Under the pieces are notes generated by a model, which saw only the letters and a program-made list of their open reading frames with translations, was not told where the DNA came from and made no database searches. The position numbers and the translations under genes were made by a program. A stretch of 60,579 bases of DNA from an uncultured Bacilli bacterium. Its GTDB lineage: Bacteria; Bacillota_I; Bacilli_A; RF39; UBA660. Below are positions 12,556-54,306 of the stretch, piece after piece. Location of the stretch: assembly GCA_947631295.1 (NCBI GenBank), contig CANRKU010000005.1:1-60579 (forward strand), written 5' to 3'. How positions within the stretch are numbered: position 1 is the stretch's first letter; the number at the start of each line of letters is the position of its first letter.

Positions 12556-13800
12556 ATGAAAATTATTACTTTATCGGATGAAGAATTTAATCGTTTTTCT
12601 GACAATTACAAAGATGCTAATATGTATCAAACTATAAGCTACGCAAAAGTTATGAAACATGAAGGATATAATTATCATCTTTTAGGTTTTGTAAATAATA
12701 GTAATGAATTAATTGGTACTACGATGGTTTTATATAAAAAAGTATTCTTAAATTATAAAATTGCATATGCTCCTTTCGGATTTTTAATTGATTATTCTAA
12801 TAATGACTTAGTAGAAGAATTGACTACAAAATTAAAATTATTATTAGCAAAACAAAAATTTATATCTTTAAAAATAAATCCTAATATTATCTGTTCTGAA
12901 AGAGATAAATATGGGAAAATAATTACTTATAACCCAGAAATTAATGACATTTTAGAAATACTACAAAAAAATGGATATATTCATACTGGATTTAATAACT
13001 ATTTTGAAAATAAAAACCCTCGTTGGAATGCCATATTAAAGTTAACAGCTTCTAATGATAATTTATATAAAAATCTAAGTAAACAAACCAGAAATAAAAT
13101 TAGTAAGGCTATTAGAAGTGGTATTGAAATTGTAGAAGGATCGAAAGATGATTTAGGAATTTTATATGAATTTATCAAGAAAAAAGAAAAAAGAAGCTTA
13201 AAATACTATAGAAATATTTGTGAAGAATTCCAAGATAATGCTAAAATTTATTTAGCAAAATTGAATACTAGAAATTATGTTAGTAAAAGCAAAATTGCTT
13301 ATGAACAAGAATTAGAATTCAATGAAATTTATAATACTGAATTGCAGGAACAAAGTAGAGAAGGAAAAGATTTAACTAGTATTATTAATAAAAAAATGGA
13401 ATCTGATAAAAGATTATCTATATATCAAAATAATTTAATTAGAGCTACTAATTACTTTGGAAGATATCCAGATGGTTTAACGATAGGTGGTTTATTAGCA
13501 ATTTCATATAAGGATAAGATGTATTTAATAATTGAAGGGTTTAACCAAAAATACAGAGTTTTTAATCCAAACTATTTATTAAAATGGGAAATCATTAAGG
13601 ATTTAAATATAAAAGAATATAAATATTTTAATATGAATGGTATTGTTGGAGAATTTAAGGAAAAAAATAAATATTCTGGATTGAATGAAATGAAATTGGG
13701 TTATCACGCTAGGGCAGTTGAATATATTGGAGAATTTGATTTAATAATTAATAAAGCGGCATATAATATTTATATGAACAAACAAAAAAAGAAAAAATAA
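12556..13800 (+). CDS. FemAB/MurMN family peptidoglycan bridge aminoacyltransferase (likely ATG 12556)
   Basis: YQT, YAPFGFLIDY, RNKISKA..GIEI, YLLKWEII, FNMNGI..GL..MKLGY, EYIGEFDLII. AAAGGAGG RBS; TTGAAT-N17-TATAAT promoter at 12496. Confidence 0.92.
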   Translation: MKIITLSDEEFNRFSDNYKDANMYQTISYAKVMKHEGYNYHLLGFVNNSNELIGTTMVLYKKVFLNYKIAYAPFGFLIDYSNNDLVEELTTKLKLLLAKQKFISLKINPNIICSERDKYGKIITYNPEINDILEILQKNGYIHTGFNNYFENKNPRWNAILKLTASNDNLYKNLSKQTRNKISKAIRSGIEIVEGSKDDLGILYEFIKKKEKRSLKYYRNICEEFQDNAKIYLAKLNTRNYVSKSKIAYEQELEFNEIYNTELQEQSREGKDLTSIINKKMESDKRLSIYQNNLIRATNYFGRYPDGLTIGGLLAISYKDKMYLIIEGFNQKYRVFNPNYLLKWEIIKDLNIKEYKYFNMNGIVGEFKEKNKYSGLNEMKLGYHARAVEYIGEFDLIINKAAYNIYMNKQKKKK

Positions 13801-39314: not shown

Positions 39315-41645
39315 TTAATTAGTATTTACATAAATTTCAGTTTTCCCATCCAAAATGTTATCTATCACATAATCATCTATTTTGTCTTCAATAACTTGAT
39401 CAATCTTTCTAGCCCCAAATTCTGCATATCTTGTAAGATCAACCATTTCATTAATAACAGTATCCTGAATATGAACTTTAATATTTCTTTCTTTAAATCT
39501 TTTCTTTACTATTTCTAACTTATTTTTTATAATCGTTCTAATATTAGTTGCATCTAATTTTCTAAAGTATATAACTTTTTGAATACGATTCAATAGTTCT
39601 AAAGACAAGACTTCTTTTAATTTACTATCATCTTTATTAATCTCTTCTAAAAATCCCACGGAATCTTTATGAAAACCAATATTAGAAGTCATAATGATAA
39701 TATGATGATTAAAATGAATAACATTTCCCCTAGCATCAGTTATTTTTCCCTCATCCAATATTTGTAAAAATAAATTTAATACACTAGGATGAGCTTTTTC
39801 TATTTCATCTAATAATATTAAAGAATGTGGATTCTTTCTAATCTCCTCTAATTTATTATGACCATCATCATATCCAACATATCCTGGAGATGTACCAATA
39901 ATCTTCGTAATAGAACTACTATCACGATATTCACTCATATCAAAACGTATTAATTTATTTTTACCAAATAAATAACGTGAATATTCCGTCGCTAATTTTG
40001 TTTTTCCTACACCAGTTGGACCAACAAACAAATAAGAATACGGTCTATCATTCTCTTTATAACCTAGTTTAATTCTTTTAGTAGCTTTTATCAACTCAGT
40101 AATAGCCTCATCCTGACCTATTATTTCTTTACGTAATTCTTTTTCTAAAGTTTTTATATAAGTATGAGTACTACCATTAATTTCATAAACAGGTATTTTG
40201 GTCTTTTCAGAAACAACATCAGCAATATCTTTATCATGAATGATTCGAATATTTTTCTTTCCATGACATTTTAATTCCAATTGATTAATTTTAGTAAGTA
40301 ATTCTTTCTCTTTTTGTTTAGTCTTAGTTGCACTTTCAAAGTCTTGATGAATAATAAATTGATTTTTTTCTTCAATAGTATCTCTAAGTTCATTTTTATA
40401 TATACTAAGTTTATTACTAGATTTATGATGAATTAAAGATACTCTAGAACACACCTCATCTAAAATATCAATAGATTTATCAGGTTGTTTCCTATCATAA
40501 ATATATTTATCAGCTAGTTTTATAATCAATCTTAATTCCTCATCATTAATTTTAACATTATGATAAGATTCATAAATGGGACGGAGTTTTTCTAAAATAT
40601 CATAAACTTGATTATAATTAGGTTCATATATAAATATTGTTTGGAATCGTCTATCCATAGCTCTATCCTTTTCAATAGTCTGTTTATACTCATCAGTAGT
40701 AGTAGCACCTATTAAACGAATTTTACCACGAGCTAATGCTGGTTTAAAAATATTAGCAGCATCAATAGCGCCTTCAGCTCCTCCAGCTCCCATTACTGTA
40801 TGTATCTCATCAATAAATAATAAAACATCATCACTAGTTTCTAACTCTTTTAACATTTTAGTAACTCTTTCTTCAAATTCACCACGATATTTCGTTCCTG
40901 ATACTAAAGAAGCAATAGATACAGAAATAATTCTCTTATTTTTCAATTTTTCTGGCACTTTATCTTGAACAATTAACCTAGCAAGTTCTTCAACTAAAGC
41001 AGTTTTACCTACACCAGCTTCTCCAATTAATAATGGATTATTTTTTCCTCTACGACATAAAATTTCCATCATTCTTTTAAGTTCTTCATCTCTCCCAACA
41101 ACAGGATCTAGTTCATTATTAAAAGCTTTTTTTGTTAAATCCACTCCAAATTCTTCAACCATCAACTTTTTCTTACCATTTTTCTTTTTACTGCTTAACC
41201 TTGCGGAAAAATAATCCTGTAATTCAGAAATATCAATAGATAATTTATTTAATACCCGTACTGCTACTCCTTCTCCTTCTTCTAATATAGCGAATAATAA
41301 ATGATCAGATGTTACTTCATTTTTAGAAGATTCTTTACTAATAAGCAATGCTGTTTCCATAACTCTCTTTAATAATGGGGTATATAAAAACCAGTCATTT
41401 TTTTCTGTACCAACACCAACTAATTCAATTAATTTATCTTTAAATTTATCATAAGTAATTCCAAATTCATTTAATTTCTTACTAGAATCATTTTTTAATT
41501 TTAATAGTGCAAGAAATAAATGTTCACTACCAATGTATGGATGTTTTAATTCCTGCATTTCCTTTTTCGAATTCATTAATACTTTTTGTGCTTCTTCGCT
41601 AAAATTGGAAAACATATCAATTCCTCCCTTATATTCTATGTACAT
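39315..41645 (-). CDS. clpC: ATP-dependent Clp protease ATPase ClpC (start probably ATG 41615)
   Basis: Clp-N repeats; two Walker A motifs (GEAGVGKT, GPTGVGKT); UVR-like middle domain. Confidence 0.93.
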   Translation of the reverse strand: MYIEYKGGIDMFSNFSEEAQKVLMNSKKEMQELKHPYIGSEHLFLALLKLKNDSSKKLNEFGITYDKFKDKLIELVGVGTEKNDWFLYTPLLKRVMETALLISKESSKNEVTSDHLLFAILEEGEGVAVRVLNKLSIDISELQDYFSARLSSKKKNGKKKLMVEEFGVDLTKKAFNNELDPVVGRDEELKRMMEILCRRGKNNPLLIGEAGVGKTALVEELARLIVQDKVPEKLKNKRIISVSIASLVSGTKYRGEFEERVTKMLKELETSDDVLLFIDEIHTVMGAGGAEGAIDAANIFKPALARGKIRLIGATTTDEYKQTIEKDRAMDRRFQTIFIYEPNYNQVYDILEKLRPIYESYHNVKINDEELRLIIKLADKYIYDRKQPDKSIDILDEVCSRVSLIHHKSSNKLSIYKNELRDTIEEKNQFIIHQDFESATKTKQKEKELLTKINQLELKCHGKKNIRIIHDKDIADVVSEKTKIPVYEINGSTHTYIKTLEKELRKEIIGQDEAITELIKATKRIKLGYKENDRPYSYLFVGPTGVGKTKLATEYSRYLFGKNKLIRFDMSEYRDSSSITKIIGTSPGYVGYDDGHNKLEEIRKNPHSLILLDEIEKAHPSVLNLFLQILDEGKITDARGNVIHFNHHIIIMTSNIGFHKDSVGFLEEINKDDSKLKEVLSLELLNRIQKVIYFRKLDATNIRTIIKNKLEIVKKRFKERNIKVHIQDTVINEMVDLTRYAEFGARKIDQVIEDKIDDYVIDNILDGKTEIYVNTN

Positions 41646-41726
41646 TATGGGAGAATTAGCATTTATTTATACATTTTTTAATATTTATCAAATCTAGAAG
41701 CATAAAATAAATTAAGGAGGTACAGA

Positions 41727-41978
41727 ATGTACAAATCACTATTAAAAAATTACATTGAGAAATTAAAAAAAGAAGATATTATTAAATACATAAATAATAA
41801 TAATTATCAAGTAACAGATAAAGAGATAGATACTATTTATTTTTATATAAAAAATTATTGGGAAGATATTTTCGATAATAAACCAGAAATATGGAATAAA
41901 ATTAAAAAGGATGTGACATTGCCAACTTTTATTCAACTTCAAAATTTATATCAGAAATATCAAAAATATATTGGATAA
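41727..41978 (+). CDS. Small hypothetical protein (DUF2624-like)
   Basis: 83 aa with AAGGAGG RBS; family name from recall only. Confidence 0.7.
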   Translation: MYKSLLKNYIEKLKKEDIIKYINNNNYQVTDKEIDTIYFYIKNYWEDIFDNKPEIWNKIKKDVTLPTFIQLQNLYQKYQKYIG

Positions 41979-41995
41979 AACTATAATAATCATAG

Positions 41996-42032
41996 AAAAA
42001 GTAGACAAAAGCTTATCACTTGTCTACTTTTA
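41996..42032. terminator. Bidirectional terminator after pilin-like copy 1 (paralogous hairpin at ~45357..45392)
   Basis: aaaagtagacaa...ttgtctactttt. Confidence 0.8.
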
Positions 42033-42070
42033 TTATTTTATTTCAAAATTAGTACTATCTTTATGTTGAA

Positions 42071-45000
42071 TTAATTTGATGAAATTAAGGTAATTTTAGC
42101 ATAGCCATTACCTAAATGTTGACCAGATACGGTACCTGCAGAAGATAAAGAACTGCTAATATATCCAGAACCGCCGCCACCGCTATGGCCATCCCATTTA
42201 CACCAAGCAGCACCACCGTACCAGCCACCACCGGCACCACCATTACCCCATTCTTCAGCACTACCACCTTGTCCGAATGATCCATTAAAGTTTCCACCAC
42301 ATGCAGAAACTCCTCCACTAGATTGGCCTCCACCTGTAGGATCTAAATGATTTTCATGTGGTTTAGTACATACATCATTATCAACCTCGTCAACTTCATA
42401 GCAGCTAGCATAATTACCATTTCCACCAGTAGTTCCACCACCAGCTCCACCAGGGCCATGAGGTGAACCACCGCCACCACCACCAGCAACGATTAATACC
42501 TCACCAGAGGTTGATGCATAATTTGCTAAAACACCTCGGTTAGTAGTGGCAATATGGGTTGCTCCACCGCCACCACCAGATGCAGTACCATCTGATTCTT
42601 CAGTAGAACGATGTCCTGGAAAGCCACCGCCGTTATAGCTATATTTTTTAGCTTCTTCCAATAACCAACCATTCCAAGTTCCAGCCCATGTTGCACTAAT
42701 ACCTTGTTGTCCTACAACAACATATAGTCTACTATCACGTGTTAGATTAACTTGTCCATAAGAATAACCACCTAAGCCACCATCTGAACCACCAGAACCA
42801 CCTTGAGCACCATAAACCTCAAGTTGATAAACTCCATTACATGGAACAATAAATTCATCTGCTTGACCTTTATAATTAAATTCCCATATATGACCATTCT
42901 CAAAGCCACATAAACTAATTGTATAATTGTAATTACTATTTCCTGACCAAGTTCCTGCACCATTCTTTGCTCTTGCTCTAATTGTCCATGACCCAGCTTG
43001 ATTTAATTGTATTGTAACACTACTAGATGTATAATTACTACTTCCACTTTGTCTTACTCCATTTAATGTTACTTCATAATCTAGAGCTTGTACTCCACTA
43101 TCTGCATCAGTTCCTGTAATAGTTACACTCAAAGTTTGATTATATGAGCCCGCTGATACATTTGTTGACACACTTGGGCCACTCTTATCTACATATACAT
43201 TTGCTGTTCTAGCTGGACAAGTCCTACTATTTCCTGCATTATCTTTGATAGTATAAGCTGCTATCGTTGTTGTACTTGTAGTAGTATTAAATGTTACGCT
43301 TCCTCCACTATTACCAGTACTACATCCACTTCCATCATCGCTACATCCATAATAAATCGTTCTATTTCCACTTGTCCATGCTGTCGAATCTCCACTGTTT
43401 GTACAATCTGGTTGTTTTTTATCTACTTTTACTGTGATATCACATGCTCCTGCATTTCCTGCTTCATCTATTACTGTTCCGGTTACTGTATAAGTTCCAT
43501 TTGCATTGATATTTTGCTTATCAATAACTTGACTCTTTATATTCGTTCCTGTTCCATCAGTTGTATTAAATCCTATCGTTACATCACTTGTATACCAACC
43601 ATTACTTCCTGAAGTCCCTTTTGTTACTTTTAAACTACAACTTGGCGCTTTGGTATCTATTGTATAATTTCTACTTTCACTTACATTTCTTCCTGATTCA
43701 TCATATGCTGTTGCTGTTACCTCCCATTTTCCATGCGTTAAATTATAACTTTTACTTTTTTCTTTGATATTATTATCATTATTGACTACTGCTCCATTAT
43801 TGGTTGTTTTTATATTCATATAACTATAATACGTATCACTCGCTGTTATTACGATACTTTTATTTGCATTATAAATTCCATTTCCTAAATTATAAGTTAC
43901 CGTTGGATTGGTCTTATCTACATTTACTGTTGTAGAACACTCTGTCTTATTCCCTGCTTCATCTATTACTGTTCCTGTTATCTTCTTATTTTTACTATCA
44001 CTTGTTACTTTTGGTGAATCTATCTTTGATTCTTTGATTCCACTTACTTTATCTTCTTTACTCTTAAATTCTATTGTTGCATCACTTGTATACCATCCAC
44101 TATTTCCATTCGTTCCACTACTTTTTAGTTCACATGTTGGATATTCTTTATCTATTTTTAACTGATATGTATTAGATTCGCTTCTATTTCCACTCTTATC
44201 TACACTTCTTACATAATAATTTTGTACTCCATTATTACTACTTATATGATAATTACTCTCTAACTTAGTATAATTTCTTCCATCTGTACTAATTTCATAA
44301 TAATCAATATCGCTTCCTAGAATTCCATTTTTTCCATAATCTGTTGACTGATATTCTTCATATATATCTCCACTATACCAATTCCCATTATATAAATTCC
44401 CTTTCGCATTATCTTTTCTCAATACTACCTGTGGTATAGTTGGTACTACATCATCTATTACCTCTACTATGATACTTTTCCTTGCTCCTTGATATACATA
44501 GGTAATTTCTACTTCTCCTAATCGATTCGTATCTATCTTCTTTGGATTTCCCTCTACTTTATCACTTACTAAACTCTCTACTCCATTCAATGTATAATAC
44601 GCTTTTGCATATGGTACTTTAAAATCTTCTCCTTGTTTTACTGTATATCGATCTTTCTCTACCTCTAGTCGATAATTCTTACTATCTGCAGTTACATTAT
44701 TATCTTCTGTATAATTACATGCTTCTCCTTCTGTTTCGTAGTTTTCACATATTAAGCAAGTATAATATTCATATTCTTTATTTTCATTCTTTCTAGCAAT
44801 TACTCTTCCGCTACAACTATTCCCATCTTCATCTACTACTTCATCTATATATTTATTAGTAACTAATTCTTCTAATGGAATTACTGTTACATTTTCAACT
44901 TCTTCTGGTAATAATTGCTTATAATCATCCAAGTAATCTCTTCCAGATAACATTACCGTTTTCTCTAAATCACTATAATATTCTTTTGTTCCTCTTATTA

Positions 45001-45100
45001 AATATCCATAAATTCCTGGTATCGCTATCAATAATAAAATTCCTATAATCGTTATTACTGTTATGATTTCTATTAAAGTAAACCCTTTTTTATTTTTCAT
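42071..45100 (-). CDS. Type IV prepilin-like large adhesin, copy 1 (Ig-like stalk plus glycine-rich tip)
   Basis: KKG|FTLIEII class III signal; repeated VDK..P..D.AGN Ig-like units; Y.LEVYGAQGG..GGGGATHI..IVAGGGGG..GNGYAKIT domain. Confidence 0.9.
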   Translation of the reverse strand: MKNKKGFTLIEIITVITIIGILLLIAIPGIYGYLIRGTKEYYSDLEKTVMLSGRDYLDDYKQLLPEEVENVTVIPLEELVTNKYIDEVVDEDGNSCSGRVIARKNENKEYEYYTCLICENYETEGEACNYTEDNNVTADSKNYRLEVEKDRYTVKQGEDFKVPYAKAYYTLNGVESLVSDKVEGNPKKIDTNRLGEVEITYVYQGARKSIIVEVIDDVVPTIPQVVLRKDNAKGNLYNGNWYSGDIYEEYQSTDYGKNGILGSDIDYYEISTDGRNYTKLESNYHISSNNGVQNYYVRSVDKSGNRSESNTYQLKIDKEYPTCELKSSGTNGNSGWYTSDATIEFKSKEDKVSGIKESKIDSPKVTSDSKNKKITGTVIDEAGNKTECSTTVNVDKTNPTVTYNLGNGIYNANKSIVITASDTYYSYMNIKTTNNGAVVNNDNNIKEKSKSYNLTHGKWEVTATAYDESGRNVSESRNYTIDTKAPSCSLKVTKGTSGSNGWYTSDVTIGFNTTDGTGTNIKSQVIDKQNINANGTYTVTGTVIDEAGNAGACDITVKVDKKQPDCTNSGDSTAWTSGNRTIYYGCSDDGSGCSTGNSGGSVTFNTTTSTTTIAAYTIKDNAGNSRTCPARTANVYVDKSGPSVSTNVSAGSYNQTLSVTITGTDADSGVQALDYEVTLNGVRQSGSSNYTSSSVTIQLNQAGSWTIRARAKNGAGTWSGNSNYNYTISLCGFENGHIWEFNYKGQADEFIVPCNGVYQLEVYGAQGGSGGSDGGLGGYSYGQVNLTRDSRLYVVVGQQGISATWAGTWNGWLLEEAKKYSYNGGGFPGHRSTEESDGTASGGGGGATHIATTNRGVLANYASTSGEVLIVAGGGGGGSPHGPGGAGGGTTGGNGNYASCYEVDEVDNDVCTKPHENHLDPTGGGQSSGGVSACGGNFNGSFGQGGSAEEWGNGGAGGGWYGGAAWCKWDGHSGGGGSGYISSSLSSAGTVSGQHLGNGYAKITLISSN

Positions 45101-45431
45101 CCATTATCACACCTATCTTTGATTATCATAAATTTTTTCCTAATATTTTAACTGATAAACTAATGTCTAACCCTATCCTACTATGTACTAAGTATAACAT
45201 ATTACTAAAAAAAATAAAAGAAACATTTTGTCTCTTTTAGCAAAGTGTATACAAATTATAATTTTCAAACCAAAAATTTTCCTAAATAATGTTTAATTCG
45301 ACATTTAATAATTTTTACTAATTTTCCCTTCACTTTTATAATTATCATAGAAATAGAAAAAGTAGACGAAAGTTTTCACTTTGTCTACTTTTATCATATC
45401 ATTTTAAAATTAGCTCTACCCTTAAGTCTAA

Positions 45432-48400
45432 TTAATTTGATGAAATTAAAGTAATTTTTGCATAACCGTTACCAACGTGCGTTGATGTACTAGTTTGAGA
45501 TGTATATAATATACCATTGCATGTTAAACTTGCACTACATCCTCCAATATATCCGGATCCACCGCCGCCAGCACCTTGTTGATTATTTCCACCGCCATAC
45601 CAGCCGCCACCGCCGCCTCCGGCATATGCCTTTGCGCCAGTAGTGCCACTAGCAGGATCTTCGGCTCTACCAAATGGACCCCATCCATGCGTCCAGTCAC
45701 CATCATGTACATATGGATATTGGCGACCACCCCAACCGCCGCCATATCCAACAACAACGTTAGGATCAATATTCTCATTTCCATCTCCACCAACTAGTCC
45801 TCCACCAGAACCACCATGAAGATCAAGAGGTACTCGTAAATCAGGATCATCATTATCACATATTTCTTGAGTACCACCACCGCCACCACCGGCTACAATC
45901 AACACCTCAGAAGTATAGTTTTCATAATTATATAATTCACCACGATTAGGACCCATCGTTATACTAGTACAACCACCACCTGATCCGCCACCAGAAGGCC
46001 CTCCATTTCCTCCGCCATTATATCCTCCTATAGTATAATAGCCTTCTACATCACGACCATCATGATCTTGTCCAATTCCACCAACCCCAATATTTAAGGT
46101 TTGATCTTTATTTAAGTAAACGTATCCTATTGAATAACCACCAGTTCCGCCTGTCCCAATCTTTTCTTTTTTCCAAGTATATAGATTTCCACCAGATGCA
46201 CCATATACTTCTAGTTGATAGTATCCACTACATAGTACTGAAAAAGTTTGTATGCCTCCAGTATAATTAAATTCCCATGAATAACCATTCGGAAAACCAC
46301 ATAAACTAATCGTATAATTGTAATCACTATATCCTGACCAAGTTCCTGCACCATTCTTTGCTCTTGCTCTAATTGTCCATACACCTGCTTGACTTAATGG
46401 TATTGTAACACTACTAGATGTATAATTATTATTTACACTTTGTCTTACTCCATTTAATTTTACTTCATAATCTAGAGCTTGTACTCCACTATCTGCATCA
46501 GCTCCAGTAATAGTTACATTCAAAGCCTCACTATATGTTCCTTGTTCAATATTACTTGATACACTTGGGCCACTCTTATCTACATATACATTTGCTGTTC
46601 TAGCTGGACAAGTCCTACTATTTCCTGCATTATCTTTAATTGTATAAGCTGCTATCGCTGCTGTCCTTGTAGTGGTACTAAATGTTGCACTTCCTCCACT
46701 ATTACCAGCACTACATCCACTTTCATTTGCTCCATCACTGCATCCATAATAAATCGTTCTATTTCCACTTGTCCATGTTGCCGAATCTCCACTGTTTGTA
46801 CAACTTGGACTATTTTTATCTACTTTTACGGTTAAACTACATGTTCCTACATTTCCTGCTTCATCTATTACTGTTCCTTTTACTGTATAAGTTCCATTTG
46901 TAGTAATACTTGGTGTATTAATTACTGAACCTGTACTTACTATATTGGTTCCTGTTCCATCAGTTGTATTAAATCCTATCGTTACATTGCTTTTATACCA
47001 ACTATTGCTTCCTAAAGTCCCACTTGTTACCTTTAAACTACAAGTTGGATTTTGAGTATCTATTTTATAGCTTCTAATTTCACTCACATTTCTTCCTGAT
47101 TCATCATATGCTGTTGCTGTTACCTCCCATGTTCCATGTGTTAAATTATAACTTTTACTTTTTTCTTTGATATTATTATCATTATTGACTACTTGTCCAT
47201 TATTGGTTGTTTTTATATTCATATAACTATAATACGTATCACTTGCTGTTATTACGATATTTTTATTTGCATTATAAATTCCATTTCCTAAATTATAAGT
47301 TACCGTTGGATTGGTCTTATCTACATTTACTGTTGTAGAACACTCTGTCTTATTCCCTGCTTCATCTATTACTGTTCCTGTTATCTTCTTATTTTTACTA
47401 TCACTTGTTACTTTTGGTGAATCTATCTTTGATTCTTTGATTCCACTTACTTTATCTTCTTTACTCTTAAATTCTATTGTTGCATCACTTGTATACCATC
47501 CACTATTTCCATTCGTTCCACTACTTTTTAGTTCACATGTTGGATATTCTTTATCTATTTTTAACTGATATGTATTAGATTCGCTTCTATTTCCACTCTT
47601 ATCTACACTTCTTACATAATAATTTTGTACTCCATTATTACTACTTATATGATAATTACTCTCTAACTTAGTATAATTTCTTCCATCTGTACTAATTTCA
47701 TAATAATCAATATCGCTTCCTAGAATTCCATTTTTTCCATAATCTGTTGACTGATATTCTTCATATATATCTCCACTATACCAATTCCCATTATATAAAT
47801 TCCCTTTCGCATTATCTTTTCTCAATACTACCTGTGGTATAGTTGGTACTACATCATCTATTACCTCTACTATGATACTTTTCCTTGCTCCTTGATATAC
47901 ATAGGTAATTTCTACTTCTCCTAATCGATTCGTATCTATCTTCTTTGGATTTCCCTCTACTTTATCACTTACTAAACTCTCTACTCCATTCAATGTATAA
48001 TACGCTTTTGCATATGGTACTTTAAAATCTTCTCCTTGTTTTACTGTATATCGATCTTTCTCTACCTCTAGTCGATAATTCTTACTATCTGCAGTTACAT
48101 TATTATCTTCTGTATAATTGCATGCTTCTCCTTCTGTTTCGTAGTTTTCACATATTAAACAAGTGTAATATTCATATTTTTTATTTTCTATTCTTTTTGC
48201 TACTACTCTTCCGCTACAACTATTCCCATTTTCATCTACTATTTCATCTATATATTTATTATTAACTAATTCTTCTAATGAAATTACTGTTACATTTTCT
48301 ATCTCCTGTGGCAATAATTGTTTATAATCATCCAAGTAATCTCTTCCAGATAGCATTACTGTTTTCTCTAAATTACTATAATATTCTTTTGTTCCTCTTA

Positions 48401-48503
48401 TTAAATATCCATAAATTCCTGGTATCGCTATCAATAATAAAATTCCTATAATCGTTATTACTGTTATGATTTCTATTAAAGTAAACCCTTTTTTATTTTT
48501 CAT
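45432..48503 (-). CDS. Type IV prepilin-like large adhesin, copy 2
   Basis: Same architecture, offset +3403 from copy 1; different tip sequence. Confidence 0.9.
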   Translation of the reverse strand: MKNKKGFTLIEIITVITIIGILLLIAIPGIYGYLIRGTKEYYSNLEKTVMLSGRDYLDDYKQLLPQEIENVTVISLEELVNNKYIDEIVDENGNSCSGRVVAKRIENKKYEYYTCLICENYETEGEACNYTEDNNVTADSKNYRLEVEKDRYTVKQGEDFKVPYAKAYYTLNGVESLVSDKVEGNPKKIDTNRLGEVEITYVYQGARKSIIVEVIDDVVPTIPQVVLRKDNAKGNLYNGNWYSGDIYEEYQSTDYGKNGILGSDIDYYEISTDGRNYTKLESNYHISSNNGVQNYYVRSVDKSGNRSESNTYQLKIDKEYPTCELKSSGTNGNSGWYTSDATIEFKSKEDKVSGIKESKIDSPKVTSDSKNKKITGTVIDEAGNKTECSTTVNVDKTNPTVTYNLGNGIYNANKNIVITASDTYYSYMNIKTTNNGQVVNNDNNIKEKSKSYNLTHGTWEVTATAYDESGRNVSEIRSYKIDTQNPTCSLKVTSGTLGSNSWYKSNVTIGFNTTDGTGTNIVSTGSVINTPSITTNGTYTVKGTVIDEAGNVGTCSLTVKVDKNSPSCTNSGDSATWTSGNRTIYYGCSDGANESGCSAGNSGGSATFSTTTRTAAIAAYTIKDNAGNSRTCPARTANVYVDKSGPSVSSNIEQGTYSEALNVTITGADADSGVQALDYEVKLNGVRQSVNNNYTSSSVTIPLSQAGVWTIRARAKNGAGTWSGYSDYNYTISLCGFPNGYSWEFNYTGGIQTFSVLCSGYYQLEVYGASGGNLYTWKKEKIGTGGTGGYSIGYVYLNKDQTLNIGVGGIGQDHDGRDVEGYYTIGGYNGGGNGGPSGGGSGGGCTSITMGPNRGELYNYENYTSEVLIVAGGGGGGTQEICDNDDPDLRVPLDLHGGSGGGLVGGDGNENIDPNVVVGYGGGWGGRQYPYVHDGDWTHGWGPFGRAEDPASGTTGAKAYAGGGGGGWYGGGNNQQGAGGGGSGYIGGCSASLTCNGILYTSQTSTSTHVGNGYAKITLISSN

Positions 48504-49129
48504 CCATTACCACACCTATCTTTTATTATCATAATTTTTTTCCTAATTTTTTAATTAACAAACTAACACTTAACCCTATCCTACTATGCACTAAGTATAA
48601 CATACTACTTAAAAATTTAAAAGAAACATTGAATTTGAGTTTCAGTTTTTTACGAAAAAATTGAATACATTTTAATCTTAAATAAAATTTTTAAAATATT
48701 TTTGGCAAATGTCTGATAAAATGCCATTTTCCCCTTCCCCATATCAATATAGAACATTCGAAAATGATCTTTTTCTATGATTAAATTAAACATCTTTTAT
48801 AGCTTCAATACTAATTGCTTATATTTCTCTCTCTTTTCTCTTTTATTAAACTCTTCTAAAATTTCTCTTTCGTATTTTTTGTTTAGTACTATTTTTAGTT
48901 AATTAAATTTTGCTAGATTGTGAAAGTTTTTTCCTTATTTTTGCATCAACAAAATGAAATTGTTTTATCCACAGATTCATTTTTTTTCTTTGTTTTTTAT
49001 TTTCATCAAAACTCAAAAACAATTAGATGTTCCCTTGCTATTATTTTAATTAATTTACATGAAACTTTTAAACATATAAAACCCGTTTCTTCTTCAATAG
49101 CGGGCTTTATATCCATTTGTATTCAGTTA

Positions 49130-52100
49130 TTAATCAATACTAACTAAAGTAATTTTGGCTTTTCCATTTCCATTATTCATTCCTGCTTGACTAAAAGTAT
49201 TATTAGCATTATACCCTGTATTAAAATAATTAGAACCACCCTCAGATCCATAACCAGGATTAGCAGTATAAAATGAAGTTAAAAGTATGCCTGAATTTTT
49301 ACCACCATTATTTACAGCTAAATCTCCTGTAGAAAATTTAAGATATAACTTTACTGCTACTTTATTCAGATACGGAGGAACCGTATAAATAATACTTAAA
49401 TCATAATCATTATGCATTGGAGTAGAATCACCATGATTGGATATACTATATCGACCATTTTCCCTTGCCTGTCTAGCAGTCTCTTTTGCTAAAACATTTC
49501 CGTTAGCATCTACTAATTCGATAGAAGTTTGATCTTCATCTATTGGAGTAAATTCAGGATGACTATCATAAAAATTGGTATCAATATATTTATTAGCAGC
49601 ATCTGCAAATGCAGTAATTTTAATATATGGAGAATTAGAAATCGTAAAGTAACCAGTAAATATAGTCAACCAACCATTAGGACTAATCTGTCTATATCCA
49701 TATAAATTGTTGAAATTTTCTACATAACCATCGTCATCACCGCCACTATAATCTACATAACCACTATCATCTCTAGTAGAATTAATAATCCAATTATTTT
49801 TATTTGTTTTATCAGGATTAATACCATTATCTATTGAATACTTGTAACTTCCATCTTGATTTTGAACTGGCGAATAAAGAATCAGTGGGTCCTTCATAAT
49901 CATAGTGGAACCATTGCTTCCATTTTGATAGCCTCCTCCGCCACCGCCATTTTCTTGTGTCGAAGATTTAGAGGTAGTTGAATTTCCTCCTGGTAATCCA
50001 TCATAATCTGCATTGGCTCCTCCGCCACCAGCTGCAACCAGTAAAATGGAAGATGCACCATTTCTAACAAGTTGTACTACTGTACTTGCACCTCCACCTG
50101 CGCCTTCAGAATTACTATTATTTCCTTGATAGCCATAGCCATTAGTTCCACCAGCAGTTCCATTTCCCATTCCACCTGGATAAATCTGTAAGAGATCATT
50201 TCTAGTAAAGCTATATCTAGAATTTACTGTTCCACCAAATCCACCTATATGTTGTAAAAAGCTTCCCCCTTGGGCACCAGATGCTTCTATTTGATAAACA
50301 CCATTACATGGTATCGAGAAATTTTGGAGTCCACTTCCATAATTAAATTCCCATGTTTGTCCTACAGGAAAACTACATAAATTAATCGTATAAGTATAAC
50401 TAGTATAATTTGACCATATTCCTGCTTGATTTTTAGTTCTTACTTTAATAATCCAAGTTCCTGATTGATTAAGTTGTACTGCTAAGCTATTAGATGTATA
50501 ATTATTATTTCCGTTTTGTTTTATTCCATTTAATGTTAATTCGTAATCCATAATTTCTATTCCACTATCTGGATCTGTTGCGGTTATCGTTACATTCTTA
50601 CTCTCTGTATAGGTCCCCTGTGTTACATTAGTTGATAATGTTGGTCCATTTTTATCCACTTTTACTGTTAAATTACATGCTCCTGCATTTCCGGCTTCAT
50701 CTATTACTGTTCCTTTTACTGTATAAGTTCCATTTGCATTGATATTTGGTGTATTAATAACTTGACTCTTTATATTCGTTCCTGTTCCATCAGTTGTATT
50801 AAATCCTATCGTTACATCACTTGTATACCAACCATTACTTCCTGAAGTCCCTTTTGTTACTTTTAAACTACAACTTGGCGCTTTGGTATCTATTGTATAA
50901 TTTCTACTTTCACTTACATTTCTTCCTGATTCATCATATGCTGTTGCTGTTACCTCCCATTTTCCATGCGTTAAATTATAACTTTTACTTTTTTCTTTGA
51001 TATTATTATCATTATTGACTACTGCTCCATTATTGGTTGTTTTTATATTCATATAACTATAATACGTATCACTCGCTGTTATTACGATACTTTTATTTGC
51101 ATTATAAATTCCATTTCCTAAATTATAAGTTACCGTTGGATTGGTCTTATCTACATTTACTGTTGTAGAACACTCTGTCTTATTCCCTGCTTCATCTATT
51201 ACTGTTCCTGTTATCTTCTTATTTTTACTATCACTTGTTACTTTTGGTGAATCTATCTTTGATTCTTTGATTCCACTTACTTTATCTTCTTTACTCTTAA
51301 ATTCTATTGTTGCATCACTTGTATACCATCCACTATTTCCATTCGTTCCACTACTTTTTAGTTCACATGTTGGATATTCTTTATCTATTTTTAACTGATA
51401 TGTATTAGATTCGCTTCTATTTCCACTCTTATCTACACTTCTTACATAATAATTTTGTACTCCATTATTACTACTTATATGATAATTACTCTCTAACTTA
51501 GTATAATTTCTTCCATCTGTACTAATTTCATAATAATCAATATCGCTTCCTAGAATTCCATTTTTTCCATAATCTGTTGACTGATATTCTTCATATATAT
51601 CTCCACTATACCAATTCCCATTATATAAATTCCCTTTCGCATTATCTTTTCTCAATACTACCTGTGGTATAGTTGGTACTACATCATCTATTACCTCTAC
51701 TATGATACTTTTCCTTGCTCCTTGATATACATAGGTAATTTCTACTTCTCCTAATCGATTCGTATCTATCTTCTTTGGATTTCCCTCTACTTTATCACTT
51801 ACTAAACTCTCTACTCCATTCAATGTATAATACGCTTTTGCATATGGTACTTTAAAATCTTCTCCTTGTTTTACTGTATATCGATCTTTCTCTACCTCTA
51901 GTCGATAATTCTTACTATCTGCAGTTACATTATTATCTTCTGTATAATTACATGCTTCTCCTTCTGTTTCGTAGTTTTCACATATTAAGCAAGTATAATA
52001 TTCATATTCTTTATTTTCATTCTTTCTAGCAATTACTCTTCCGCTACAACTATTCCCATCTTCATCTACTACTTCATCTATATATTTATTAGTAACTAAT

Positions 52101-52333
52101 TCTTCTAATGGAATTACTGTTACATTTTCAACTTCTTCTGGTAATAATTGCTTATAATCATCCAAGTAATCTCTTCCAGATAACATTACCGTTTTCTCTA
52201 AATCACTATAATATTCTTTTGTTCCTCTTATTAAATATCCATAAATTTCTGGTATCGCTATCAATAATAAAATTCCTATAATCGTTATTACTGCAATGAT
52301 TTCTATTAAAGTAAACCCTTTTTTATTTTTCAT
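49130..52333 (-). CDS. Type IV prepilin-like large adhesin, copy 3
   Basis: Offset +7233 from copy 1; lacks the Cys-rich module; tip carries a ~200-aa insertion. Confidence 0.9.
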   Translation of the reverse strand: MKNKKGFTLIEIIAVITIIGILLLIAIPEIYGYLIRGTKEYYSDLEKTVMLSGRDYLDDYKQLLPEEVENVTVIPLEELVTNKYIDEVVDEDGNSCSGRVIARKNENKEYEYYTCLICENYETEGEACNYTEDNNVTADSKNYRLEVEKDRYTVKQGEDFKVPYAKAYYTLNGVESLVSDKVEGNPKKIDTNRLGEVEITYVYQGARKSIIVEVIDDVVPTIPQVVLRKDNAKGNLYNGNWYSGDIYEEYQSTDYGKNGILGSDIDYYEISTDGRNYTKLESNYHISSNNGVQNYYVRSVDKSGNRSESNTYQLKIDKEYPTCELKSSGTNGNSGWYTSDATIEFKSKEDKVSGIKESKIDSPKVTSDSKNKKITGTVIDEAGNKTECSTTVNVDKTNPTVTYNLGNGIYNANKSIVITASDTYYSYMNIKTTNNGAVVNNDNNIKEKSKSYNLTHGKWEVTATAYDESGRNVSESRNYTIDTKAPSCSLKVTKGTSGSNGWYTSDVTIGFNTTDGTGTNIKSQVINTPNINANGTYTVKGTVIDEAGNAGACNLTVKVDKNGPTLSTNVTQGTYTESKNVTITATDPDSGIEIMDYELTLNGIKQNGNNNYTSNSLAVQLNQSGTWIIKVRTKNQAGIWSNYTSYTYTINLCSFPVGQTWEFNYGSGLQNFSIPCNGVYQIEASGAQGGSFLQHIGGFGGTVNSRYSFTRNDLLQIYPGGMGNGTAGGTNGYGYQGNNSNSEGAGGGASTVVQLVRNGASSILLVAAGGGGANADYDGLPGGNSTTSKSSTQENGGGGGGYQNGSNGSTMIMKDPLILYSPVQNQDGSYKYSIDNGINPDKTNKNNWIINSTRDDSGYVDYSGGDDDGYVENFNNLYGYRQISPNGWLTIFTGYFTISNSPYIKITAFADAANKYIDTNFYDSHPEFTPIDEDQTSIELVDANGNVLAKETARQARENGRYSISNHGDSTPMHNDYDLSIIYTVPPYLNKVAVKLYLKFSTGDLAVNNGGKNSGILLTSFYTANPGYGSEGGSNYFNTGYNANNTFSQAGMNNGNGKAKITLVSID

Positions 52334-52353
52334 CTATTACCACACCTATCTTT

Positions 52354-52517
52354 TTTATATACTTAGATACTTTTTTAAAAAATAAATTATCTTTAAAATA
52401 TAAGAAAAACTCTTAATTACACATTAGTATTTTTTTCAATTCTCTAACAATATTATATCTTTTTTTCATTTATTTTCAAGCAAACTTTTCTTCCTATAAA
52501 GTATCTAAGTATATAAA
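52354..52517. promoter_or_regulatory. Candidate invertible promoter: perfect 20-bp IR enclosing a minus-strand TTGAAA-N16-TATAAT
   Basis: TTTATATACTTAGATACTTT (52354..52373) and AAAGTATCTAAGTATATAAA (52498..52517); promoter at 52452..52479. Confidence 0.65.
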
Positions 52518-52614
52518 TTAAAAACGTTCAAGCAGAAAACAATTGTTTATACTAGAAGAATACGATAATTTTCTTAACAATAAAACTTAGAATATCTTTT
52601 TAATTTTAATGTAT

Positions 52615-52656
52615 ATAAAAAAGTACCTAAATAAAATTTATTTAGATACTTTTTTT
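52615..52656 (-). terminator. Intrinsic terminator of the transporter gene
   Basis: aaaaagtacctaaata...tatttagatactttttt. Confidence 0.75.
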
Positions 52657-52674
52657 AATTAATCTTCAATATTC

Positions 52675-54306
52675 TTAAATTAGAAATACAACGAAGAATA
52701 TAATAACAAGTACAACTAATAATTCTAAGAATAATTTCCAAATATGTTTTAACCATTGTCCATAAGAAACATCTAAATATGTTAACGTACCAAGTAAGAT
52801 TGCACTAGTTGGAGCAACTAACATCATTAATCCATAAACAGATTGGAAAATAACACCAATAAGTGGATATAATGTAGTATCTTGAACAACAGAAGTAACA
52901 TAAGGTAGTGTACTTTGTGCTACATAAATATTTTCTACATTGAAAATACTAGATATCATAGTAACAAGTGTCATGGTAATTACGTTAAAATCTTTTGTGA
53001 AATCCAAGAAAAATTTAGTAATATTTAATTGGAATGGATTATAAGTTACTATAATTAATACTAAATAAGTAAGTAGCATATAAATTGCTGGTTTTAAAGC
53101 CTTTTTTACACCTTGTTCAATTGCATCTAAAAATTCATCAAATTTTAATCCATAAATAAATGCTAAGAAACAAGATGATAAAATAATAAGTGCAGGCATT
53201 TCATAATTTAATGACCAACTTCCAAATGAATTAACTTGTCCTAATAGTTTAGCAAATATTGGAAAACCACTAATTTCAAAATCTTGAACAGCTTTCAAAG
53301 CATCACTAAACCATTTTATTTCTAATACACCTTCCCAATCAAATGTAGCAAGTGCTAAAAGAACAACAACTAAGTCAAAAACAAGGATAAATGGCCAAGT
53401 CTTTGCTTTCTTTTTTGGTTTAACAGTTACTTTAGTTTCTGTTTTTGATTTTAAATCAAATGCTCTTGTTTTAGTTGTAGATTTACTAGAAGATTTAGTA
53501 GAATATTTAGTAGATTTCTTAGAATTTGTTTTTGTAGAACTAGAGTTTTTCTTCTTTGAATCTTTTTTACTAGAATCTTTTGCTTTAGTTTCTACTTTTT
53601 CTTTGGTATCTTTTTCTTCTTTCACAACTACTTTTTCTTCTTTCTTTCCACTATTAACACTAATAGGTACAAATTCTAACACTTTATCTGTAGTATTTCT
53701 TGTTTTTTTAGCATACTGTAAAACATTAAATATTAGTACCACTAAACCAATTACTAGTAAAATAATTTTTGTAATTATTTCACTATATACATCTGTTCCT
53801 AGTACTGCATTAATATAATATGTAGTGTTAGAACCAAGTGTAGTTCCTAAAATTCCAACAATAGTAGAACCAACTGTTACACTTGCTGCAACTAACTTAT
53901 TATATCCCATTAATAAAATAACGGATATAATGAATGGAAATACGAATAAAATTCCAAAAGATAAACCTGTAACTGAAACAATAACTGCTGTTAAAATCAT
54001 AATTAATGACAAGAAAATAGCTTCTTTACCATCAAATAATTTTACGATTTTATCTAGAAGTACACGATAAGCTGGAATCTTATAAGCAACTCCATAGAAT
54101 ATACCAGTAGCAAGAACTATTAAAACTACATATGGAAAATAACGAAATAATTCAACTGCATAAGAAAATAAATCGAATATTCCAAGTTGATTTCTAGCAT
54201 CAACTACTAATTCTGCTTGATAAGAAGCTGATGGAAAAATCCAAGTACATAATGCTACTACTAGTATAGATAGTAAAACTACCTTTAAAATATTATGTTT
54301 CTTCAT
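52675..54306 (-). CDS. Multi-pass membrane protein, YfcC/DcuC-like transporter with a Lys/Ser-rich loop
   Basis: About 12 TM segments; TWIFP, LVAPTSAILLGTL..VSYGQWLK C-terminal motif. Confidence 0.7.
   Translation of the reverse strand: MKKHNILKVVLLSILVVALCTWIFPSASYQAELVVDARNQLGIFDLFSYAVELFRYFPYVVLIVLATGIFYGVAYKIPAYRVLLDKIVKLFDGKEAIFLSLIMILTAVIVSVTGLSFGILFVFPFIISVILLMGYNKLVAASVTVGSTIVGILGTTLGSNTTYYINAVLGTDVYSEIITKIILLVIGLVVLIFNVLQYAKKTRNTTDKVLEFVPISVNSGKKEEKVVVKEEKDTKEKVETKAKDSSKKDSKKKNSSSTKTNSKKSTKYSTKSSSKSTTKTRAFDLKSKTETKVTVKPKKKAKTWPFILVFDLVVVLLALATFDWEGVLEIKWFSDALKAVQDFEISGFPIFAKLLGQVNSFGSWSLNYEMPALIILSSCFLAFIYGLKFDEFLDAIEQGVKKALKPAIYMLLTYLVLIIVTYNPFQLNITKFFLDFTKDFNVITMTLVTMISSIFNVENIYVAQSTLPYVTSVVQDTTLYPLIGVIFQSVYGLMMLVAPTSAILLGTLTYLDVSYGQWLKHIWKLFLELLVVLVIIFFVVFLI

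Follow-up and report, generated by a model that had tools for sequence, protein, structure and literature searches.

The stretch of DNA analysed here, 60,579 nucleotides (nt) from an uncultured Bacilli bacterium (NCBI GenBank assembly GCA_947631295.1, contig CANRKU010000005.1), carries three very long genes in direct tandem, g1, g2 and g3. Their products combine a type IV pilin N-terminus, a rod of immunoglobulin-like (Ig-like) domains and a glycine-rich C-terminal head. The whole stretch is called the window below, and positions refer to it unless another contig is named. It is one entire 60.6-kb contig (contig 5) of a genome assembly of 1.10 Mb in 48 contigs, 92% complete, and has a G+C content of ~27%. 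The three genes and the parts of their products are as follows.

g1, 42071..45100, minus strand: modular type IV pilin of 1009 amino acids (aa) with signal and pilin module, Ig-like rod and TNF-like plus glycine-rich (TG) head (open reading frame (ORF) list; Pfam N_methyl, Big_13 and ALK_LTK_GRD; AlphaFold2 (AF2) model).
g2, 45432..48503, minus strand: paralogue of 1023 aa, with the architecture of g1 and a different head (ORF list, Pfam, alignment).
g3, 49130..52333, minus strand: paralogue of 1067 aa, with one rod domain fewer and a head bearing an insertion of ~180 aa (ORF list, Pfam, alignment, split match to the glycine-rich domain (GRD)).
Pilin module, ~residues 1-135, with the class III signal (MKNKKG before F, Glu+5), minus strand: g1 44696..45100, g2 48099-48503, g3 51929-52333 (PF07963; PDB pilin matches; AF2 helix 9-59 and small sheet).
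Cys-rich rod domain, approximate coordinates, minus strand: g1 43181..43417, g2 ~46572-46814, none in g3 (alignment columns 565-644).
Head of g1 (TG/GRD), from WEFNY to the end, 42074..42886, minus strand (PF12810 105.8 bits; tip model).
Head of g2 (TG/GRD), 45435..46277, minus strand (~49% aa identity to the g1 head; synonymous divergence (dS) 1.16 against g1).
Head of g3 (TG/GRD), 49133..50353, minus strand, with an inserted domain at ~49343-49882.

An initial annotation, made from the sequence alone, had recognised three genes of ~1000 aa with a class III (prepilin) signal, and this was confirmed for all three copies. Each protein starts with MKNKKG, followed after the predicted cleavage site by FTLIEIITVITIIGILLLIAIP (beginning FTLIEI), with Gly-1, Phe+1 and Glu+5. 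PF07963 (N_methyl) was matched in g1-g3 at E 1-2e-7, with 30.7-31.6 bits against a cut-off of 21.2. Residues 1-167 retrieved solved type IV pilins from the PDB, including PilA and PilE, at 4.9e-7 (geopilin) to 0.01, and a profile of the family also matched pilins there. Glu+5 and the full class III motif are retained in all three copies and across relatives. Structure prediction had been proposed at the outset; the AF2 model of g1, for which 60 relatives were aligned, reached a predicted local distance difference test (pLDDT) value of 85.2 and contains a helix at residues 9-59, a small sheet and then all-beta structure. The strands of the pilin module lie at 71-75, 97-104 and 110-118, with block pLDDT of 73-89. 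The strand pattern of the model suggests about six or seven beta-sandwich (Ig-like) domains at residues ~140-730. In this rod Big_13 is above the Pfam cut-off, with other Ig-like families below it, and a whole-protein Foldseek search of g1 gave generic Ig-like domain chains (GhpA, titin, contactin) as best matches, after which the head was folded alone.

Genes for a pilus machine, whose search had also been proposed at the outset, were found elsewhere in the genome. Seven ORFs carry the pilin motif, namely g1-g3 and four pilins of 167-203 aa that lie in a row on contig 8. On the same contig a PilD-like peptidase (A24_N_bact plus Peptidase_A24, 253 aa) adjoins a PilC-like T2SSF platform protein (478 aa); a T2SSE assembly-type ATPase of 408 aa is encoded on contig 1, a Tad-like set on contig 26, and contig 3 has a third, weaker T2SSE match. 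MurE is encoded in the genome, so a cell wall is likely.

The C-terminal heads match PF12810 (ALK_LTK_GRD) at E 4.7e-30 in g1 (105.8 bits), 9.4e-27 in g2 (95.0 bits) and 3.9e-9 in g3 (37.3 bits), against a cut-off of 24.5 bits. The match covers profile positions 5/7-243 of 243 in g1 and g2, and positions 7-147 plus a separate C-terminal piece in g3. Compared with the profile of the family, g3 residues 656-817 correspond to positions 3-166 and residues 998-1067 to positions 206-242. This split match indicates an insertion of ~180 aa in place of one loop region (profile positions 167-205), at a site that corresponds in g1 to a low-confidence, variable loop. An ESM Atlas search with the g3 insertion (residues 820-1030) gave no usable match. 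The loops between the glycine motifs also differ among the three copies.

The g1 head modelled alone (residues 716-1009; pLDDT 89, predicted template modelling score 0.88) has the TG fold, in agreement with the ALK/LTK-type tip of the initial annotation. It was aligned to ALK (7nx3_A) with a Z score of 18.0 over 206 residues (root mean square deviation 4.3, 30% identity) and to nematode ALK (7lir_B) with Z 15.2, the identities to ALK/LTK entries ranging from 28 to 30%. The mycobacteriophage Bxb1 tail tip and the cyanophage Pam3 fibre followed at Z 9.1 each (137-141 residues), and the next-best fold matches, a cupin-domain protein (4.6) and then the C1q/TNF family, had Z 4.6 or below; S16 gp38 is absent from the fold-match lists of this model. 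A Foldseek search with the same model agrees, with ALK/LTK entries at E 8e-11 to 4e-8. A phmmer search with the g1 head alone gave 0 matches in the PDB and a profile was needed: a profile of 64 heads matched SCD-2/ALK at 2.9e-13, ALK at 3e-9 and LTK at 2.7e-8. Three PHROG phage families also match the heads (E 1e-21 to 3e-31). In the g1 tip model, DSSP assigned the confident Gly-rich stretches to neither helix nor strand. In the Pam3 paper, recognition of the host receptor is attributed to these domains, whose glycine stem is conserved and whose distal tip is hypervariable, and a likeness to gp38 of Salmonella phage S16 and to nematode ALK is noted (PMC9608196).

Divergence along g1-g3 is a mosaic and not uniform. 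The shared segments and the flanking elements are the following.

Block of 859 nt identical in all three copies (gene nt 385-1243), minus strand: g1 43858..44716, g2 47261-48119, g3 51091-51949 (sequence comparison; dS 0-0.006).
Run of 1492 nt identical between g1 and g3 (gene nt 87-1578), minus strand: g1 43523..45014, g3 50756-52247 (sequence comparison).
Upstream region of g1, with ribosome-binding site (RBS) and promoter-like TATGTTATACT, 45101..45227, minus strand (87% identical to the g2 upstream region, 48504-48630).
Terminator hairpin with T run, minus strand: g1 41990..42045, g2 homologous 45345-45405, g3 a different hairpin at 49065-49125 (RNA folding).

The initial annotation had described ~0.85 kb of stalk identical even at synonymous sites, tips that diverge after Y.YTI.LC.F..WEFNY and reconverge on GNG.AKITL, promoter and terminator regions common to copies 1 and 2, a variable part bracketed by homology, and more GGC and GCC codons in the tips. 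The comparison bears these out, with one qualification each for the first (perfect identity may partly be an assembler effect, see below) and the last (codon counts, below). The 859 nt are the longest run identical across all three copies. Both motifs stand in the protein alignment, as YNYTISLCGF..WEFNY at the junction and GNGYAKITL or GNGKAKITL at the common end. The DNA that brackets the g1 and g2 heads is 83-100% identical 5' of them and 87-93% identical 3' of them, and the two genes have 87% identity both in 127 nt of upstream sequence and in a terminator region of 62 nt. The flank that g3 has in common with g1 and g2 is a 19-nt RBS stretch, with no common 3' flank past the coding end. Hairpin energies are -14.4, -17.3 and -13.8 kcal/mol for g1, g2 and g3 (z -4.2, -5.5 and -3.8); a strict terminator scan of the region found 0, although folding shows hairpins with T runs.

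Between g1 and g2, dS (Nei-Gojobori) runs along the gene as 0, 0.13, 0.41, 0.006, 0.04, 0.26, 0.13 and 0.18 and then reaches 1.16 in the head, and g2 has a diverged patch at nt 130-384 within the stalk. Between g1 and g3, dS is 0 over codons 31-470 and then 0.07, 0.70 and 1.29. A head dS of 1.16 between flanks of ~0.13-0.26 indicates that the g1 and g2 heads were replaced or kept as old alleles and did not diverge in place. The differences between heads consist of indels and whole loops, with no adenine-specific substitution pattern in the alignment. A blastn search of g1-g3 across the 1.10-Mb assembly gave no match outside contig 5, and thus no further stalk or head copies or donor cassettes.

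GGC makes up 12/72, 17/79 and 9/63 of the Gly codons in the tips and 3/65, 1/64 and 0/51 in the stalks (6% genome-wide), and GCC makes up 2/20, 3/10 and 3/24 of the Ala codons in the tips and 0/33, 0/34 and 1/24 in the stalks. Stalk and tip do not differ in the G+C content of third codon positions (0.13-0.18), and it is therefore mostly their glycine content that raises the G+C of the tips; a foreign origin of the heads, considered on the basis of G+C, was rejected on the same ground. Each stalk copy also contains an identical 85-aa antisense ORF (43908-44165, 47311-47568 and 51141-51398, plus strand), most likely a by-product of the repeated sequence and no gene.

The nearest relatives by LysS are metagenome-assembled genomes of uncultured Bacilli from rabbit, human, mouse and ruminant guts. 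A g1 query found a match at E 0.001 or better in 46/61 genomes (its own included) and in 28/28 of the same genus, and the first ~400 residues of g1 were matched at 51-57% identity in ten places of seven genomes. One g1-based search for related loci in genome contigs gave 102 pattern matches, none of which was confirmed. In the five genomes closest by LysS (91-95% aa identity) the pilins are only 38-57% identical, so the giant pilin evolves far faster than housekeeping genes. In a large protein collection there were 460 matching proteins, with the same stalk (50-58% identity) joined to GRD, TSP_1 or unrecognised heads. Paralogues within three relatives (G023, G006 and G001) have 1.2-2.6 kb of 5' DNA in common at 77-88% nt identity, and the G001 pair is tandem. 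In several relatives contigs end inside pilin genes.

Among 80 GRD domains placed in a quick tree, the g3 head pairs with P0019, a pilin of another organism (SH-aLRT 97), the g2 head is a weak sister (84) and the g1 head stands apart. P0019 carries the same inserted head as g3, at ~40% overall identity. The g1 head is up to 50% identical to heads of other organisms and 49% identical to that of g2. By these sequence comparisons the heads diverged very long ago (dS about 1.2) and do not group together as nearest relatives.

The idea that the pilin lies beside clpC in most relatives was rejected: by tblastn, ClpC is next to a pilin in 1/11 relative loci (G023 contig 4). That locus is syntenic (lysS, transporter, pilin, clpC), and its pilin has a Cys-rich, non-GRD head. 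The G023 pilin (contig 4, 30000-49000; L049 5445-17811) is split after a 132-aa N-terminal piece by an insert of ~10 kb, which holds a 497-aa transposase-like ORF, a 293-aa ORF and nine tandem genes of 123-145 aa (MKLNIDFIYPVGSIYM...WKRTA), after which the remaining pilin follows. The nine tandem genes presumably resemble phage tail-collar proteins.

The array was compared with Logan contigs from three runs of one rabbit-gut sample, placed on 41000-53500. Four runs of that sample contain 88-90% of the sampled words and it is possibly the source sample; in that case the contigs are an independent assembly and not independent data. Four junctions are bridged with 0 differences: clpC to tip 1 (41000-42970), the g1 5' end through the spacer to tip 2 (45077-46361), the g2 5' end through the spacer to tip 3 (48480-50723), and the g3 5' end to the transporter gene (52305-53500). 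Contig depth is 14-20 in unique parts, all three heads included, equal to that of flanking housekeeping genes, and 34-42 in the stalk. These observations support a multi-copy stalk and tandem junctions as real.

In the stalk, the contigs and the window disagree at 2-7 positions per 0.8-1.2 kb. The variants, for example at 44016, 44330 and 44600, fall at sites where the three window copies agree and occur in none of them. Since no contig spans the whole stalk, the order of the three units is given by the window assembly alone. Each Logan contig was placed at one of the equivalent copies, so stretches without contigs (such as 47255-48088) carry no information. No joints between copies were reported among the placed contigs, and contigs drop rare variants. 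Run X5 of a second study (share 0.05) gave 11 contigs only, at depth 2-3 at the locus, too thin for a strain or habitat call; short low-depth pieces of heads 1 and 3 recur there with 2-3 differences per ~175 nt.

The array is bordered by a DcuC-like transporter gene (52675-54306) on one side and clpC (39315-41645) on the other, and the window also encodes rpoB/rpoC-sized genes, cysS, clpC and lysS. Between g3 and the transporter gene lies an inverted-repeat element, and similar elements occur elsewhere in the genome (G000).

Candidate invertible promoter of g3, 52354..52517, no strand assigned: perfect 20-nt inverted repeats 52354-52373 and 52498-52517 around 124 nt.
Six similar elements of ~160 nt with 17-20-nt repeats (G000): contig 13, 11058-11221; contig 27, 6325-6485; contig 11, 14250-14406; contig 22, 13826-13984; contig 18, 4112-4270; contig 7, 26216-26372.

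The 124-nt core of the g3 element holds TTGAAA-16-TATAAT (52479..52452), oriented toward g3 and the best promoter-like site of the region, and the element ends 20 nt from the g3 start. A genome-wide scan for perfect inverted repeats of at least 16 nt with spacers of 30-600 nt found 20 pairs. A single palindrome cluster on contig 10 accounts for 12 of these, 1 is located within an ORF on contig 9 and the remaining 7 have spacers of 121-127 nt. The six elements outside the window each lie ~20 nt upstream of a signal-anchored adhesin-like gene, and the heads of these genes are DUF285/LRR, cadherin-like, three Laminin_G_3 domains, GRD and two unrecognised. Their ~120-nt cores have one orientation at three loci and the reversed one at three, with repeats and flanks collinear. 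In each of two of the three runs, a 174-nt contig of its own stops at the g3 repeat edges (52344-52517 and 52354-52527). Promoters bracketed by repeats before adhesin genes have the geometry of invertible promoters and suggest phase variation, as far as sequence goes. A 30-letter loose end at 52416, considered as the inverted form, was rejected, with no genome match at up to 3 mismatches.

An inverted-repeat search of the spacers found terminator hairpins and the g3 promoter repeats only. The transporter gene has a terminator hairpin at 52611-52655 (arms 52617-52635 and 52637-52655), and this terminator and the g3 promoter repeats have a motif of ~17-18 nt in common (AAAGTA.CTAA.TA), in four copies within 300 nt. 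The cluster on contig 10 (~12907-13527) consists of repeated 18-23-nt palindromes (core ATGTTTCACGTGAAACAT, plus AATTATTTCCCGGGAAATAATT) spaced ~100-300 nt apart, and is possibly a binding-site array or an origin-like region. Two further families with a constant anchor were seen in the genome. One (FFNYTKEGTT), with proteins starting ..KKKKNEKKEILWMLVALVSLAVITLGVSVAFFNYTKEGTT, carries GRD, LRR/DUF285, lectin-like, Laminin_G_3 and cadherin-like heads; its two GRD members have 1.4 kb in common at 87% nt identity, and contig 9 starts within the conserved part. A third family (MSRGKKIYFG...) is found on contigs 13, 27 and 11.

FFNYTKEGTT family (G000): contig 4, 15285-17927; contig 9, 3-2393; contig 22, 14003-15916; contig 7, 23494-26196; contig 18, 2310-4091.

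Taken as a whole, the locus is read here, with a probability of roughly two in three, as a tandem set of genes for three modular type IV pilin adhesins, which bear alternative receptor heads and whose 5' parts are homogenised by gene conversion. The three genes are then probably alternative adhesins of a known design and no new switching machine. A prepilin peptidase probably cleaves each protein after Gly6, and the hydrophobic alpha-1 helix together with the small pilin module would admit the protein to a type IV pilus made of the small pilins encoded elsewhere, most likely at the pilus tip because of the bulk of the protein. The rod of Ig-like domains would hold the C-terminal TG head outward, a fold with which phage tail-fibre tips bind receptors of their hosts and ALK/LTK bind their ligand. 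As the heads belong to three old and different lineages, the genes would provide three alternative specificities of binding that share a stalk. The 0.9-1.5 kb at the 5' end may stay identical or nearly so through gene conversion, or through unequal crossing-over of the direct repeats, and heads may be gained, kept or replaced on an evolutionary time scale by recombination in the conserved flanks. Each gene would be transcribed separately, and inversion of the promoter segment before copy 3 probably turns that gene on and off.

Several observations weigh against parts of this reading. The stalk has ~2-2.4x the single-copy depth instead of 3x; perfect stalk identity may partly reflect flattening by the assembler, the copies probably differing at few sites, and the stalk variants and the depth together make the identity weaker as evidence for very recent conversion. 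A recent duplication followed by head replacement would look no different from conversion. The pilus genes lie dispersed in the genome, unlinked to the array, and that g1-g3 are produced, processed and assembled into filaments is a prediction from genes. The literature search found no functional study of a bacterial GRD/PF12810 member or of a homologue. For the g3 element, the promoter match is weak evidence, because a sigma-70 scan stayed at chance level in this AT-rich DNA (71 found against 68.2 expected). In one of the three runs a contig passes straight through the element, no read or contig with the opposite orientation was seen in the three-run contigs, and its inverted repeat differs in sequence from that of the other six. 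Recombinase families have 8 matches in the genome, three of PF00589 (contigs 1, 6 and 8) and five of PF00239, all on other contigs, and none in the three neighbouring ORFs tested.

A different reading, which also came out of the initial annotation, is that the array works as a tip-diversification system, in which heads change their expression site by frequent recombination, with the stalk and the conserved 3' end as arms of homology, and so alter receptor or antigenic type within a population. What stands of that claim is the past replacement or retention of heads, for the head dS of 1.16 lies far above that of the flanks and at least one replacement has happened. The g1 and g2 heads are indeed bracketed by homologous DNA, and with three different promoters, one of them a candidate inverton, a head moved to another promoter could matter. 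A working exchange or antigenic-variation system is decidedly improbable, however: every copy is complete with start codon, signal peptide, RBS, own upstream region and terminator, so there are no silent cassettes, and exchange between identical stalks yields the same three proteins. Moreover, g3 lacks the common 3' flank, blastn found no donors elsewhere in the assembly, the recombinase matches lie away from the array, no inter-copy joints appeared in the placed contigs, and the heads represent old lineages, with a counterpart of the g3 head and its insertion in another organism. The direct orientation of the three genes excludes a shufflon, and a diversity-generating retroelement was rejected, since no reverse transcriptase (PF00078) was matched in the 92%-complete genome and the heads differ by indels and loops. 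A more ambitious view makes the array and the bracketed promoter a combinatorial surface-variation device, in which inversion and RecA-mediated recombination between the near-identical stalk repeats (deletion, duplication or hybrid formation) would choose the head at the tip, with at least two other adhesin families working alike. The heads would then set the partner or host range as tail-fibre tips do for phages, for example in attachment to other bacteria or to mucosal glycans. This view is doubtful at present; the host, a 1.1-Mb gut bacterium, is probably partner-dependent.

The proteins might instead be surface fibrils and not pilus subunits, the pilin-like N-terminus serving as export signal and anchor, or forming a short pseudopilus, so that lone stalked adhesins of ~30 nm reach through the wall. 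Their length, seven to eight times that of the four ordinary pilins of the genome, fits such fibrils, as does the distance of the array from the pilus genes, and the same genome pairs another N-terminal anchor (the FFNYTKEGTT family) with variable heads. Fibrils are nonetheless unlikely, given that Glu+5 and the class III motif are kept in all copies and relatives and that the pilin module behind the helix is conserved and confidently modelled. In addition, the 50-kDa modular pilin PilB of Streptococcus sanguinis is described as taking a direct part in adhesion by pili, and is modelled as packing into filaments through its pilin module (PMC8179133). Lastly, the array or its stalk identity could have been made by the assembler from strain variants or a collapsed repeat. 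A 1.5-kb exact repeat is hard for short reads, and a collapsed edge traversed three times gives identical copies; the variants absent from the window, the stalk depth and the relatives' contigs that end inside pilin genes all point the same way. Against it, the separate contig set bridges all four unique junctions without a difference, the three heads stand at housekeeping depth, g2 has diverged stalk segments of its own, and tandem or multiple paralogues also occur in relatives, which makes an artefact very improbable, the least probable of the explanations considered.

Compared with known systems, the array of modular pilins resembles R64 PilV and pilE-pilS in that adjacent sequences encode different C-terminal parts for a pilus protein whose N-terminal part is constant. 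The R64 shufflon with PilV requires inverted segments, sfx repeats and the Rci recombinase, and the Neisseria pilE/pilS system requires promoterless silent cassettes; here the copies are direct and complete, each has its own promoter region, and no recombinase was found in the neighbours tested. The element fimS is an invertible promoter before a surface-structure gene. Like invertons, the elements described above have 17-20-nt inverted repeats around a promoter-bearing segment of ~124 nt directly upstream of adhesin-like genes, with both orientations at paralogous loci. Unlike in proven invertons, both orientations are seen only across loci, and the candidate g3 element has its own repeat sequence. 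In gut bacteria, invertons are reported to precede surface-structure genes (PMC11892184, PMC11602134).

The closest design is that of the modular type IV pilins of S. sanguinis, PilB (pilin plus vWA) and PilC (pilin plus lectin), as described by Raynaud et al. 2021 (PMC8179133). With N_methyl, Big_13 and PF12810, g1-g3 fit the modular-pilin definition (an IPR012902 motif and at least one domain that is not pilus-specific), and like the S. sanguinis proteins they have a class III signal and a small N-terminal pilin module with a grafted binding module in a monoderm host. They differ in the Ig rod of ~600 residues between pilin and head, the total length of ~1000 aa, the three tandem paralogues with a homogenised 5' part, the TG/GRD head and the location of the genes outside any pilus operon. 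Dataset S1 of Raynaud et al. lists the IPR012902-PF12810 architecture in 2 proteins, plus 1 with three GRDs, and the most extreme multi-domain case described is an 860-residue protein with 12 copies of one motif (PMC8179133). With the TG domain of ALK/LTK (PDB 7nx3, 7ls0, 7lrz, 7lir and 7nx1) the heads share PF12810 over the whole profile and the fold at Z 15-18; the carrier is a bacterial pilin instead of a receptor kinase, the loops are variable and g3 has its insertion. With phage fibre tips (Pam3 gp24, 7ypx; Bxb1 tail tip, 9d93) the array shares a distal head on a long fibre, conserved glycine motifs, variable distal loops and a predicted function in recognising a target. Pam3 gp24 is a trimer with a dedicated chaperone (PMC9608196), and the carrier here is a pilin instead of a tail fibre.

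The array opens no new category, as the pilin plus PF12810 architecture is already catalogued. The features that set it apart are its long Ig rod, stalks that are almost identical next to heads that differ with dS above 1, the insertion in the g3 head and the putative inverton. Modular pilins explain how many functions derive from one pilus machine, but studied examples are few and none of them bears a head of this type. Small and confidently folded, the heads could be expressed on their own, so their ligands are directly testable. If the favoured reading is true, the TG fold of ALK and phage fibres also serves as a bacterial pilus-tip adhesin, and pilins can bear a stalk of ~600 residues. A genome-reduced gut bacterium would then keep alternative heads on a homogenised stalk, that is, concerted evolution beside long-lived functional alleles, and their expression may be phase-variable.

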